Source of the DNA: Leucoraja ocellata
Taxonomy: Eukaryota
Direction of reading: 5' to 3'
Length of the DNA stretch: 64,000 bases
Assembly: GCA_036785375.1 (NCBI GenBank)
Contig: JAWMAR010000098.1
Coordinates: forward strand, 3,162,001-3,226,000
Position numbers and translations under genes: made by a program. Below the pieces are notes generated by a model. The model did not search any database. It worked only from the letters and a program-made list of their open reading frames with translations, and was not told the DNA's origin. Below are positions 4,414-63,599 of this stretch, one piece after another; within the stretch, counting starts at the first letter, position 1; every line of letters begins with the position of its first letter.

Positions 4414-4770
4414 AAGATAGACACATAAAACCGAGAAGAAGTCTGAAGAAGGGTCACGACCCGAAACGTTGCCTATTCCTTCTCTCCATAGATGCTGCCT
4501 CACCCGCTGAGTTTCTCCAGCATTTTGCGTCTATTGTCGATTTTTCTAGCATCTGCAGTTCTTACTTAAACATAAAACTGGAGTAACTCAGCGGGTCAGA
4601 CAGCATCTCTGGAGAAAAGGAATAGGTGACATTGCCCGTCTTCTTCAGAAGAAGCATCTCGACCCTAAATGCCACCTATTCCTTTTCTTCAGAGATGCTG
4701 TCTGACCCGCTGAGTTACTCCAGCTTTTTGTGTCTACCTTTGGTTTAAACCAGCATATGCAGTTCCTTCT
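4414..4770. mobile_element. PLE fold-back element with a second PLE terminus nested at 4432-4569
   Basis: Outer direct repeat tcaacattaaaacta (4399-4413, 4771-4785); inner direct repeat acataaaac (4423-4431, 4570-4578); the inner copy has ctgaagaagggtcacgacccgaaacgtt. Confidence 0.8.
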
Positions 4771-6104
4771 TCAACATTAAAACTACTGTATCTCAAACCA
4801 AAGCATTTATTCTGGTTTTCACTGAAATCAGCCCCACAGATCTCACAAAAGCACATTTGAAGTGGCTAGTTCTGTTCCACAGAGACTGCAGCAACCTTTT
4901 CCCGTAAGACAAAGAAAACCCTACTACCCATCTGATTTCTAAGGTTGCTTGCTGAATATTGTTCATTATAATTTTCAAAGCATTCCTTCGCAAAGTTCAT
5001 CAAAATTATCTAGGTTATTTTTCATCATCTCTTTAACTTCAACCTCGTTTCATTTTGTTCCCCAAATGTTCACAGGTGAAACTTTTTCAGCCGTAGGATT
5101 TGCTGGTAAAGTGTCTATTTTTTTCCCCCACCTATAAAACTGACTGGATAAAATTGTCGGGTTCGCTCACTAACTCTGCTTTTAAGTATATTTTGCATCA
5201 GTGGACAGTATCCCGAAAGCCAGTTAATTAATCTTCACTCAAACTCAATTCTGAATCTTTCTAAATAGAAAAATAGGCATTTAAACACAGTAAACAAGCA
5301 TTGGACAAGCACTAAATGCAAAGGTGAAGTGGCTGAAGCATTTCAGGATTTCATGTTTGACTGCACTTTCTCTGTCCACAGGGACCAATCTTCTCCTGCC
5401 CTAAGTCCCTTAAAGCCCTTGGCTTGTGAGCACATCCCTCATAGAGATGGGGCAGACTCCTTGCTTGGAGCTGGTACATGTTTCCTTTTAAATGGTCTTT
5501 TAACAAGCATCCGATTGAACCCTCAAAGGTACACTCGGACCTCTTCTTAAGCACCAGGTCAGGGTGGGAGCAACATTTTCGGAATTCAAAAATCTTCCTC
5601 TATTTCCAACTCCAGTTAGATTTAAAGGGACAGCTCACATGCATTGGCCAGTTCCTTCCTACACATTGGCCTCCATCATTAATAATGTAAAGATTGCCAT
5701 AGTATAAAGCAATGAAAATAAAACAAATTCCTCTAATGCAACGTAGATAGCTGTTGCTTAAATTGTATTTCAAAACCCAGCCATTATCTTGTCTGAGGTT
5801 CATATATGTTAGGCCACAGGATGCTTTAGCAACCACAGCAGGCACACCACAAACTTCAAAAGATAACAGTATTAATAGTGGTATTTACATTAATTCACAT
5901 GTTACCCTGGCCTTAGTGCTATAGCTAAATGTGACAGTCGTTTCCCCAGCTTTCATGCTTGCAGTCTCTAACCTCACATACGGGAGTGGTGCTTTCACTT
6001 TTAGAACAAGAGAAAGAACAATGACCACTGAAAATAAAACGACAGCAGTCCCAATTGAAATGCTCCACTCTATTGTTTGCTGAACTGTCTGGGAAGGGAC
6101 GATG

Positions 6105-6350
6105 GAGAAAGGAAAAGTAAATGACTTGCACCGATGTAGCATTGTTTACAACCCCAGGAGGCCCCAAAGAACTTTGCACCTAATGAAGCATTTGTTTTTG
6201 AAGTGTAGTAACACTTGGAATGGAAACTCAACCGCAAATTTGCACACAGCAAGCTCCCACGTCAAATATTATTATGAAAGAGGCTCTTGAAGTTGATGAG
6301 GGGCATTTGTTGGTGAGGTTGGTGAGAGTTGATTAGCCAGGACATCAGGG
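6105..6350 (-). mobile_element. DeuSINE (SacSINE1-like) 3' half
   Basis: The reverse complement has gggagcttgctgtgtgcaaatttgc...ctacacttcaaaaac...ctttgggg..cctgggg...tgcaagtc, typical of Deu-domain/L2-like tail SINEs. Confidence 0.6.
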
Positions 6351-6808
6351 ATTTTACCAGAATGCTGCCCAGGATTACGGGATATTCGCCTGGTTGGACA
6401 GGCTGGGATTGTTTTCTCTGGAACGCCAGATGTTGAGGGGAGACCTGATAAAGTATATAAACTTACGAGAGGCAAAGTTGGGGTAAACAATCAGAATCCT
6501 TTATCCCAGGGTGGAAATGTCTCACCGACAGGAGAACATAGTTTTAAGGTGAGAGGGGCAACGATTAAAGGAGTTATGCGGCGTGAGTTCTTTGTTTACA
6601 CGGAGGGTGGTGTGTGCCTGGGATGTGCTGCCTGGGATGGTGGTGGAGGCAGATATGATAGCGGCATGAAGAGCCTTGTAGATAAGCACATAGATATGTA
6701 GAGAATAGAGGGATCATGTGCAGGCAGATGAGGTTTTACCTTTGCACTGTGTTCAGCACAGACATTGTGGGCCGAAGGGCCTGGTGTTGTGCTATAATGT
6801 TCTATGTT
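6345..6808 (+). mobile_element. CR1 LINE 3' fragment
   Basis: tttaccagaatgctgcc...ggagacctgataaagtatataa...gggccgaagggcctgg...tgttctatgttc. Confidence 0.8.
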
Positions 6809-7547
6809 CGAAATATCACCCTCACTTTCCTTCAAATTCAGCATAGCAACACATGCATCCACTCGAGAGAGAGAATAAATGTATCCCCAATTACAGTCTT
6901 CTCCGAATTTTACATTTCCACAGTGCAGTGATATACTGCAAGGCCAAATGACATTTCTGCGCTCACTTTGAGTGAGGCTTGCACCCCATAAACCAAACTC
7001 TGAGCAGCCAACTGAGCCACAATTAACACTGGGAATGGAACTGGGAAGTGGAAATCCACAATGATGGGTGAACCACATAAAATGCAATAAAGTGTCCGTG
7101 ATCTATTCTTAGTGGTCTGGCAATTAAAGTACAGCACATGAAGGGCATAGTAAGAACAGCAGGCAAACTAAAACAAAAAACCCTGCACACCTTTTATCAT
7201 AATGCCCCTGCCTCACAGAGGTTTTCTTCACCTTGCATTCCTCCTTTCTTACCTGCACTGCAATAACCCAACCCTCATCAACCACCAAGCCCCATGGAGT
7301 TGTTGATCACCACAGCATGTTATTAACAATCCCATTAACCGGTATCCTAGAACTTGTGCTAATATGTATGGCCCCTCAGAGAACCATCTTCTGTCCGACA
7401 CAGAAGAGCTCAGTCAATCTAAAGAGCTTTTTTTAAAACAAAGAACCTTTATGCTATTAAGCATGGAAAAAAAGCATTGCTGATTTTTCATTGTAGTCTT
7501 TGACAGGAATATTGAATATCAGATATGCAGCTCATTCATTAAGCCAG

Positions 7548-7885
7548 AGTGACACAGAATGGAAACAGGCCACTCAGCCCATCGACTACGAGTCGCCCAT
7601 CAAATAATCATCCGCAGTCTTCTACGCTAATCCCAGTTAATTTGCCCCACCTTCCTCCTGGATTCCAAACCTAAACCACACACCAGGGGCAATGTACATG
7701 GGCCACGGTATTGATTTAACAACCCACATGCTGTTGGGTTGTGGAAGGAAACCGGAGCACCCCAGCAAAACCTATATGGTCACAGGCAGAATGTGCAAAC
7801 TTCACACAGACTCTGCTGGAGTCAGGATTGAATGCAGGTCTCTGGAGCAGTGAGTTGAGGCAGCAGCTTTTCTACCTGTGCCCCT
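7548..7885 (-). mobile_element. tRNA-derived V-SINE (HE1-like), diverged
   Basis: ggaaggaaaccggagcacc...ggtcacaggcagaatgtgcaaacttcacacagac...gtcaggattgaa. Confidence 0.7.
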
Positions 7886-62109: not shown

Positions 62110-62270
62110 AACACATAGAATTCAGAGGGTCAAGCAGCATCTGTGGAGTCAAAGATTGGAAACTGATGTTTTGGGTCAAGACTCTGCATCAGGTGCTGAA
62201 ACGTCCATTTACACCTTTTCCACCCAAGATGCTGATTGACCCGTTGAGTCTTACCAGCATCCTGCTTTAG
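62110..62270. mobile_element. Old PLE fold-back element
   Basis: gggtcaagcagcatctgtgga...gactctgcatcagg|gctgaaacgtcc...gatgctgattgacccgttgagt. Confidence 0.6.
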
Positions 62271-62739
62271 TTTCACCAATGGTGTGATGTTTGGAACTGG
62301 CTTCAATTTTAATGTTTCAAGTTCGAAAGCTTCTGAGTTTCTGACTTGTGTATGTGGCTGGCTAGCATGCAACCATTATATTTTCATTGTAGCTGTACCT
62401 CACCATACGTGCATTTGACAATAAACTGAACTTGACTGCATCTTCACAAATCACTACGCTGGAAATGTTGAAGTGTGATACTCGTCCTCGATAAATGACA
62501 ATGTTATCAGTCTTTGGTCCCCTTCTGTTTCTCAAATGCCTGGTTGCACTGAACAAAACTGTATGAAATTATAGCTTCACTTCTCACGTGGGCAATGTGA
62601 ACTGTACTTGATTTTTATCATCTTGTGACCTCCACCATCTTCCCATCTTCAGAACATTTTCTCAAAGAAGTCGTGGAAAGACTGAAGCCAGTGGCTTTGG
62701 TTCCATTACACAGCACTCTCTGGCTACTCAGTCCATCCG

Positions 62740-63150
62740 TCTACTTCACAATTCGCAAACTATTTGTAAACTTGGTATGATCAACTGGGAGATGACGGTC
62801 AGACCACATTGTTGCTATCGAGATTCCCTACTCCCATCTCCACAACATCTGCCAATTCCAGTGTTGCCTCATTTCATCTGCGACAAAACACATGGACATG
62901 TCTTAGCTACATCCAGACTCGACTATTCCTCTGCACGACTAGTCAGCTGTCCACACTCTAAACCTCAGTGCATCCTAACCTTTGCCGCTCAGATCTTCAC
63001 TTATTACTGGGTAACATCTGTGTTCAATGGCCCACGTAAGCTCCTGCATAAGGAAGGACTGAATTGTAAATGTGTTTTCCCATCCCTCCATGCTTTCATG
63101 CCTCTGTTTGGTTGTAATTCTCTACAAGTATCTGTATCCTTTAATTGTAG
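62740..63150 (+). mobile_element. Ancient L2-clade LINE ORF2 remnant
   Basis: ORF 62777..63193 contains ATSRLDYSSARLV...FAAQIFT, resembling the L2 C-terminal motif TSRLDYSNALL...SAARILT. Confidence 0.6.
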
Positions 63151-63461
63151 TTCCAATCATCCAAGCGTTGTTCCAGCCAAAATCAGTAACTGAGGAGTCT
63201 TGTGGGTCGGGAATTGATGAAGCCTCTGTAATTCTGTTCAGGTTGATGTGTCAATACTTGACCAATGCCAAGTGCACACAGTGGACCTGATCATCAACCA
63301 GTATTTATTTTGTGCTTTGAACAGACGGCAGATTTTACTGAGATTTAGAATGAATGCAACACACAACCAGAAAAAAAAAACAATGGAAGGATAGTCCAGA
63401 GAGGAATTTGAGAGAGCTATATTGAGACAAGGACATTGAGACAGGCAATATTCTTAAAGCA

Positions 63462-63599
63462 TAGGAAGGAATTGCAGATGCTGGTTTAAACCGTAGATAC
63501 AAAACGCTGGAGTAACTCAGCGGGACTGGCAGCATCTCTGGAGTATCCTTCTCTCCAGCACTTATGCTGAGTTACTCCAGCATTTTATGTCTATCTGTG
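63462..63599. mobile_element. PLE fold-back element (ribozyme core deleted) with 15-bp TSD
   Basis: aatat(t/c)cttaaagca at 63447-63461 and 63600-63614. Confidence 0.75.

Follow-up and report, generated by a model that had tools for sequence, protein, structure and literature searches.

The stretch examined here, a window of 64,000 nucleotides from the skate Leucoraja ocellata (contig JAWMAR010000098.1, positions 3,162,001 to 3,226,000), carries coding exons of the gene zfhx3 and many copies of a short repeat with a minimal hammerhead ribozyme motif (min-HHR). It was close to certain that these repeats are ends of Penelope-like elements (PLEs) carrying the motif. They are very probably the 3′-terminal 95–134 bp, the pseudo-long-terminal-repeat (pseudo-LTR) end, of a Neptune-type PLE of cartilaginous fish, inserted by the element's own reverse transcriptase (RT)/GIY-YIG protein, with the ribozyme now a passenger.

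An iterated profile built from ten window copies was searched against the window and five locally shuffled windows. It matched 37 pieces in the window and none in each of the shuffled windows. The pieces formed 27 loci, one of them with a nested copy (∼28 insertions), and covered 3,996 bp or 6.2% of the window. An earlier sequence-only reading of this DNA had counted ∼26 copies, in agreement with the profile, and the four core sites that it cited (39565–39592, 46876–46903, 49441–49468 and ∼53371–53398) have exactly the sequences it gave. A structure descriptor of the minimal hammerhead matched nine times in the window, compared with no match in 199 of 200 Markov resamples and one match in the other. 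The full element is ∼134 bp long, made up of ∼95 bp and an optional ∼35-bp 3′ tail; with hammerhead C3 numbered as position 3, the consensus spans position 0 to ∼133. Both strands were used evenly (19 plus and 18 minus pieces; nine and nine solo copies). Two young subfamilies, S1 and S2, were distinguished, and the most mutated columns were CpG (46/235).

The Penelope origin, already proposed by the sequence-only reading, obtained direct support from the copy at 49379–49860 on the minus strand. This copy extends past the short element by 390 bp on the upstream side, where it enters a broken reading frame, and all 482 bp lie inside one 11-bp target-site duplication (TSD), in the order endonuclease remnant, pyrimidine-rich spacer, hammerhead and tailless body. 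A full HMMER search with the frame of the remnant (stop read as X) gave 167 proteins at E ≤ 0.001, the best at 7e-17, and the best named relatives came from Leucoraja, Hypanus, Stegostoma and Chiloscyllium (skate, stingray and sharks). Domain scans of 13 relatives found GIY-YIG in nine, four of which also contained RVT_1. A Cys linker preceded the endonuclease in 10 of 11 relatives checked (last Cys changed in one); the window copy is truncated downstream of this linker. A zebra-shark read-through protein consisted of endonuclease, spacer and then a peptide matching the first 36 nt of the element, showing that the same order exists in another species. With the remnant alone, Pfam gave no match and a word-index protein search gave 17 candidates and no matches, since its frame is shifted in the central part. 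RT was absent from the window by tblastn; in the relatives it lies upstream of the endonuclease. From the 482-bp copy, its relatives and the zebra-shark order we concluded that the short element is, very probably, the 3′ end of a Neptune-type PLE.

With the Neptune clade of EN+ PLEs the copies share the C-terminal GIY-YIG, TSDs, a one-sided 30–40-bp tail and 5′-truncated copies in inverted orientation, and their relatives also share the Cys-rich linker; the window differs in holding only the last ∼480 bp, the linker and RT being known from relatives. The Cys-rich linker domain is described as a mark of Neptune (PMC3846280), but Nematis has a Cys linker too (PMC8557442). The degenerate core pattern had no exact match in bacterial or archaeal genomes, and no similar DNA was found in plasmids. 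An overlap of the element with the start of the PLE open reading frame (ORF) was not supported: none of the retrieved proteins had an N-terminus to which the consensus could be matched.

The anatomy of the insertions agreed with this origin. Duplications of 10–20 bp flank some of the copies: a score of at least 9 was reached in 8/27 loci vs 8/702 mismatched flank pairs, and the count rose to 12/27 when six internal bases were allowed. Nine head-to-head inverted pairs were found among the 27 loci; six of them lie inside a single duplication, and each of these is therefore one event. In two pairs the arms are joined in an identical way, overlapping by 5 nt on the near-palindrome of positions 2–6. 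The 3′ ends were bimodal, with 16/37 at 88–103, 16/37 at 116–133 and five elsewhere. The tail was present on exactly one arm in seven of the nine pairs and on both arms in none. Inverted pairs, optional tail and 10–20-bp duplications, all missed by the earlier reader, are known PLE signatures; inverted copies and a one-sided 30–40-bp tail have been described for PLEs (PMC8557442, PMC2377424, PMC11167929), and Penelope has a 34–37-bp repeat (PMC2377424) similar to the ∼35-bp tail here.

A close parallel is Poseidon PAc of Anolis, an element of another clade, with a hammerhead ∼100 nt before the 3′ end and two RT start sites that bracket the tail and to which the one-sided tail has been tied (Frangieh et al. 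2024, PMC11167929). Following the Anolis work, the protein would cut both DNA strands, reverse transcription would prime at two internal sites of the RNA and so leave an optional tail, and two cDNAs at one break would anneal via short microhomologies into inverted pairs.

Some copies are of interest in themselves. The arms of the pair at 46749–46971 are 100% complementary over 91 bp, forming a perfect inverted repeat within 46782–46971 that is either very young or homogenised. Two separate full copies, 53037–53170 (+) and 53268–53401 (−), stand tail-to-tail 97 nt apart and are 86% complementary over 134 bp; in the pre-mRNA they would pair into a long double-stranded stem and are an editing candidate. 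At 19843–19857 and 53025–53036, a short stretch of extra sequence separates the duplication from the element's 5′ end and repeats the first bases of the element, which suggests template jumps.

The sequence-only reading had regarded the copies as a large, largely non-autonomous, ribozyme-bearing family of this lineage. A separate family of this kind, SINE- (short interspersed element-) or retrozyme-like, would have short masters of its own and be mobilised in trans by the PLE. Its sharp 5′ end, shortness, high density and duplications would be accounted for, and retrozymes have been proposed as non-autonomous PLE derivatives (bioRxiv 10.64898/2026.07.22.740005). We nevertheless regard it as unlikely. 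Five markers of the endonuclease-bearing copy (G31, T49, C61, A62 and T74) recur in short S2 copies, and in S1 two copies reach 16–18 nt upstream into PLE sequence; since both subfamilies include upstream-extending copies, both had long templates and a separate lineage is unneeded. No head-to-tail tandem arrays were present among the 27 loci, and in Anolis the RNA depends on sequence beyond the priming site, on its downstream side, that short copies would lack (PMC11167929). As regards a tRNA-derived SINE class, ARAGORN found no tRNAs in the window, a result still compatible with a decayed tRNA-like head, and the element has the hammerhead at its 5′ end, collinear with PLE sequence. Judged by sequence, the short copies would most simply be truncated products, whose 5′ truncation, inverted pairs and tails are ordinary for PLEs.

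The consensus and six copies contain all parts of the min-HHR: CUGANGA, an extra base, helix II closed by G10.1–C11.1, GAAA, the palindrome and UH. The fit to the published consensus is letter for letter (Cervera and de la Peña 2014, PMC4209133, supplementary file 2), including the palindromic 15.2/16.2, which bears out the earlier assignment to minimal type-I hammerheads; helix II is at the short end of the published range. Helix I has only 2 bp, as had been cautioned, the lower limit of the 2–6 bp of min-HHRs (G1–C32 and U2–A31, U–G in S2; 70.5% of cells paired, later-starting copies included). But the published alignment includes examples with a 2-bp helix I and a 4-bp helix II (PMC4209133), and stem I length therefore does not exclude membership. 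Bases at both ends of the core were present in 22/37 pieces, nine of which kept the core and the four stem II pairs. Six cores were strict (G10.1–C11.1 and ACGU), three sense and three antisense to zfhx3. Loop II was, as noted earlier, more variable than stem II (non-CpG mismatches 10/46 vs 14/161), but a compensatory signal for the stem was not obtained: covariation was no higher than in shuffles (194/500 scored as high), and both-sided changes in helices occurred in 1 of 132 cells, a level reached by 397/500 shuffles, with low power from one lineage and one window. Rfam models, suggested earlier as a check, returned no hammerhead family at E ≤ 10 for the whole window or two 100–120-nt stretches; weak sub-threshold miRNA-like scores came from inverted pairs, including 46782–46971.

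Folding predictions were unfavourable to the ribozyme. With downstream sequence included, stem II had a predicted pairing probability of about 1% in the consensus, of no more than ∼0.01 in the three sense cores (native downstream sequence) and of 82% in the antisense copy at 39565. Inverted partners were predicted to add 40–49 kcal/mol against the ribozyme fold, and the strict core at 46876–46903 (+) is locked in the hairpin of its pair. A selected off-state hairpin burying the core was considered and rejected: the minimum fold is predicted to contain it, yet 12 stretches were no stabler than shuffles (z −1.0 to +1.8).

Several points weigh against the origin and passenger status stated at the outset. 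The window holds no full-length element, and the link to PLEs consists of one long copy, two copies extended by 16–18 nt and the protein relatives. No clear duplication was seen at 15/27 loci, the tail asymmetry alone was not significant (p about 0.08–0.09), and partner arms were barely more alike than non-partners (86% vs 82%). When the sequence was cut at position 36, the predicted stem II pairing was 0.7–0.8, and neither Mg2+ and proteins nor tertiary contacts and co-transcriptional kinetics enter into the folding models. Moreover, in 30/37 pieces (six older copies and one duplicate arm left out) non-CpG mismatches were fewer in the core (12/228) than in the body (172/1672, p = 0.016) with subfamily columns kept. 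Excess conservation of the core, which the sequence-only reading had named as a test together with covariation, was rejected, however, as the effect was lost without 10 subfamily columns (12/228 vs 113/1489, p = 0.27). This test is weak, because inserted copies decay neutrally and selection acts on source elements only. The mutation pattern is in keeping with source lineages under selection and copies that decay neutrally. By ancestry the hammerhead motif is genuine, and it probably had a role in the source elements, as a dimer and/or with the help of protein; its genomic copies are very probably neutrally decaying passengers.

The 5′ ends were sharply clustered. The start fell within −3 to +3 of position 0 in 22/37 pieces, and 10/18 solos began in this region (p = 8e-6 vs a 60-nt uniform null). 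Among 11 copies with an independent 5′ flank, nine had A at position 0 (p = 6e-4), and A0 therefore belongs to the element; the preceding base was C in three of those nine and is not clearly part of it. A start at the ribozyme cleavage site was seen in only 1/37 pieces, which proved to be an internal deletion, so copies beginning there were rejected as a class, and the templates were uncleaved at this site. The initiator pattern is YYANWYY and the downstream promoter pattern RGWYV. In the long copy A0 lies within TCAGTCT, which matches the former, as do 1.2% of positions.

These ends may be those of run-off cDNAs from the transcript 5′ end, a possibility compatible with the PLE-end origin that we take seriously from the sequence, though at less than an even chance. 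The PLE promoter would start at the A three bases before C3, and RT would prime ∼95 or 133 nt downstream and fall off at the cap. The template would be uncleaved linear RNA, and longer copies would need a tandem or circular one. The start clustering, A0 in its initiator-like context and the near absence of starts at the cleavage site are as this predicts; priming in Anolis is internal, near the ORF start, and uses uncleaved RNA (PMC11167929), and Penelope has an internal TATA-less promoter (PMC2377424). Against it, the match to the downstream promoter pattern is imperfect (4/5), and transcription of Penelope in D. virilis begins 46 nt upstream of a 75-nt intron that runs up to helix I. As a candidate intron of this sort separates the end of the endonuclease from the hammerhead in the long copy, transcription may in truth begin further upstream. 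Templates spliced across this candidate 87-nt intron were rejected, as the 5′ flanks of 14 copies matched the putative exon end at 0–5 of 9 bases, no more than by chance.

Alternatively, RT could halt at the 5′ edge of a folded or protein-bound hammerhead, making it a truncation hot spot in a longer RNA. The 2-bp stem I ends just at the boundary, and several copies have short duplicated starts. The copy at 55480–55598 has lost exactly the hammerhead (positions 1–31), with a TCA repeat on either side of the deletion, as a template jump over a folded motif would produce; its 18-nt upstream part matches PLE sequence at 15/18 bases, a level reached by 1 in 20000 random sequences. But this jump is a single case, and the predicted fold is weak and out-competed. 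RT usually pauses when it meets the 3′ base of a structure and not once the structure has been copied, which also speaks against a stall at this point. We consider such stalling rather doubtful.

Returning to the PLE-end reading, a fuller version can be offered tentatively, with somewhat less confidence than run-off itself: the short copies would be a fossil record of the PLE cycle, made of cDNAs running from two priming sites to the transcript 5′ end on uncleaved RNA, the pairs would be two cDNAs of a dimeric RT joined at one double-strand break, and the ribozyme would be a rare switch. If so, only cleaved and circularised (or tandem) RNA would give long copies, and a weak ribozyme would flood the genome with ∼130-bp stubs.

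The host gene was identified from a long minus-strand ORF as zfhx3 (top named matches 65–71% identical). A clear splice acceptor lies 46 nt before the ATG at 43763, and intron 1 therefore presumably makes up the region above 43810. Within the window no exon upstream of this one was identified and CpG observed/expected was at most 0.76 per kb, so that the promoter probably lies beyond it. The sense-strand strict cores (49441, 53371 and 55049) are all upstream of the first coding exon, in this presumed intron, and their transcription in the pre-mRNA, as suggested earlier for several cores, is plausible.

It could be imagined that these three cores dimerise in the zfhx3 pre-mRNA and cut it. They are spaced by 1.7 and 3.9 kb, similar to the ∼3-kb tandem spacing of PLEs, and dimers of such motifs showed low but detectable cleavage (PMC4209133). 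In the same work, however, monomers were inactive and dimers weak in vitro; the Anolis motif requires the PLE protein and left no RNA-seq ends (PMC11167929), and one of nine Xenopus dimers was cleaved (bioRxiv 10.64898/2026.07.22.740005). The hammerhead-like fold was predicted to lie 5.9–11.5 kcal/mol above the minimum, and 40 kcal/mol above it for the 53371 copy paired with its inverted neighbour. The best predicted dimer was a stem II swap and not an ACGU duplex, and sense copies were not depleted. Cutting of this kind is thus very improbable, and the zfhx3 pre-mRNA is most likely not meaningfully cleaved by the genomic copies. Self-cleavage is therefore unlikely to affect zfhx3; long dsRNA from inverted copies would be the more plausible influence on the host transcript.

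The class of element is already known. Solo min-HHRs from truncated PLEs are abundant and widespread in animal genomes, mostly as solo copies and some close together on opposite strands, as here (PMC4209133); two supplementary files of that paper have no shark, skate, Callorhinchus or Leucoraja entry. If the window is typical, a density of six strict cores per 63 kb greatly exceeds that of coelacanth and Xenopus, with 4,000–9,000 motifs per genome (PMC4209133). Non-LTR retrozymes are likewise short and non-coding, with a type-I hammerhead, and related to PLE pseudo-LTRs, but they form head-to-tail tandem arrays (PMC7229834; bioRxiv 10.64898/2026.07.22.740005), whereas the elements here are solo or head-to-head with a minimal motif. 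The retrozymes of PMC7229834 have canonical ribozymes and produce circular RNA, and the preprint lists one chondrichthyan with tandem units averaging 363 bp (bioRxiv 10.64898/2026.07.22.740005). Among the leading open-literature matches, neither the family in skates or rays nor a spike of 5′ ends at the hammerhead was described, though Repbase or Dfam may well annotate the family. What is added here is a member from cartilaginous fish, probably of Neptune type, with very high local density and sharp ends.

Other repeats were also observed. A second family of ∼200 bp gave 9–10 blast pieces, one starting 4 nt after a PLE stub; its head may be tRNA-derived, resembling elasmobranch SINEs. A 112-bp repeat in four copies resembles a CR1-type long interspersed element (LINE) end, and three open frames, for which Pfam gave no convincing match, may be LINE remnants. 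The assembly has two gaps in the window, at 40691–40890 (200 N) and 51780–52129 (350 N). All features are listed in the table.

Table. PLE-derived copies and other features of the window (a dot marks features on both or no stated strand)
Feature	Position	Strand	Details
Composite head-to-head inverted pair	4414..4771	.	Minus arm 4414–4439 and 4567–4649, tailless; plus arm 4645–4771, tailed; 15-bp perfect TSD
Full short S2 copy with tail, nested in minus arm of 4414..4771	4440..4572	+	Duplication at least 9 bp; strict core 4443–4470
Older divergent copy, tailed	8328..8449	-	Damaged core
Solo copy from position 0, tailless	10369..10462	-	Cleavage-site bases deleted
Older coreless fragment	11382..11466	+	
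Older copy	13533..13637	+	Damaged core
Older fragment	14333..14414	+	Damaged core
Solo copy, tailed	15261..15391	-	Core bases intact; palindrome gone; stem II with wobble pairs
Solo copy, tailless	19749..19842	-	∼14-bp duplication; mutated U4 and G12
Solo copy	20793..20889	+	Damaged core
Head-to-head pair	22029..22240	.	Tail on minus arm only; ∼11-bp duplication
Coreless 3′ fragment, tailed	30077..30135	+	
Head-to-head pair	37158..37299	.	Both arms tailless; damaged cores
Head-to-head pair	39211..39370	.	Plus arm alone tailed; ∼12-bp duplication; lacks a complete core
Solo copy	39565..39670	+	Strict core 39565–39592, antisense to zfhx3
Solo copy from position 0	46277..46363	-	∼12-bp duplication; cleavage site lost by deletion
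Head-to-head S2 pair	46749..46971	.	Tail on minus arm only; duplication at least 12 bp; strict core 46876–46903 (+)
Head-to-head pair	47770..48003	.	S1 plus arm tailed, reaching 16 nt into upstream PLE sequence
Solo copy from position 8	48403..48504	+	∼13-bp duplication
5′-truncated Neptune-type PLE insertion, 482 bp	49379..49860	-	11-bp duplication; strict core 49441–49468, zfhx3 sense
Candidate GT...AG intron, 87 nt, ending at helix I	49470..49556	-	Between endonuclease end and hammerhead
C-terminal GIY-YIG endonuclease remnant	49553..49852	-	Frame broken by frameshifts and in-frame stop
Full copy, tailed	53037..53170	+	11-bp duplication; mutated GAAA box
Full copy, tailed	53268..53401	-	∼18-bp duplication; strict core 53371–53398, zfhx3 sense
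Solo copy, tailless	53730..53821	-	Mutated G12
Solo copy, tailless	54994..55078	-	Strict core 55049–55076, zfhx3 sense
S1 copy, tailed	55480..55598	+	18 nt of upstream PLE sequence fused to position 32; hammerhead deleted
Head-to-head pair	56373..56593	.	Tail on plus arm only; ∼10–12-bp duplication; damaged cores
Older head-to-head pair	62119..62260	.	
Coreless head-to-head pair	63462..63596	.	Tail on minus arm only; 15-bp duplication, one mismatch
zfhx3 first coding exon region	40974..43809	-	Acceptor ∼43810; ATG 43763; open frame to stop 40974
zfhx3 second coding exon	27544..28146	-	Open frame around it
Second ∼200-bp family	20893–21100, 33212–33414, 44412–44697, 49917–50098, 58022–58223	+	blast
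Second ∼200-bp family	47061–47254, 50884–51023, 60193–60395	-	blast
112-bp repeat, four copies	22410–22519, 32527–32633, 35378–35490, 56186–56297		
Open frames	36313–36852 (-), 3226–3654 (+), 6333–6701 (+)		

The window contains 441 insertions and 95 strict cores per Mb. Extrapolated from this one window to a 2.2-Gb skate genome, such a density would correspond, to an order of magnitude, to 10^6 stubs with 10^5 cores still intact. So many duplication-flanked stubs would allow the statistics of 5′ ends, tails and junctions to test models of how pseudo-LTRs and inverted copies are formed and what role the hammerhead plays (PMC8557442, PMC11167929).

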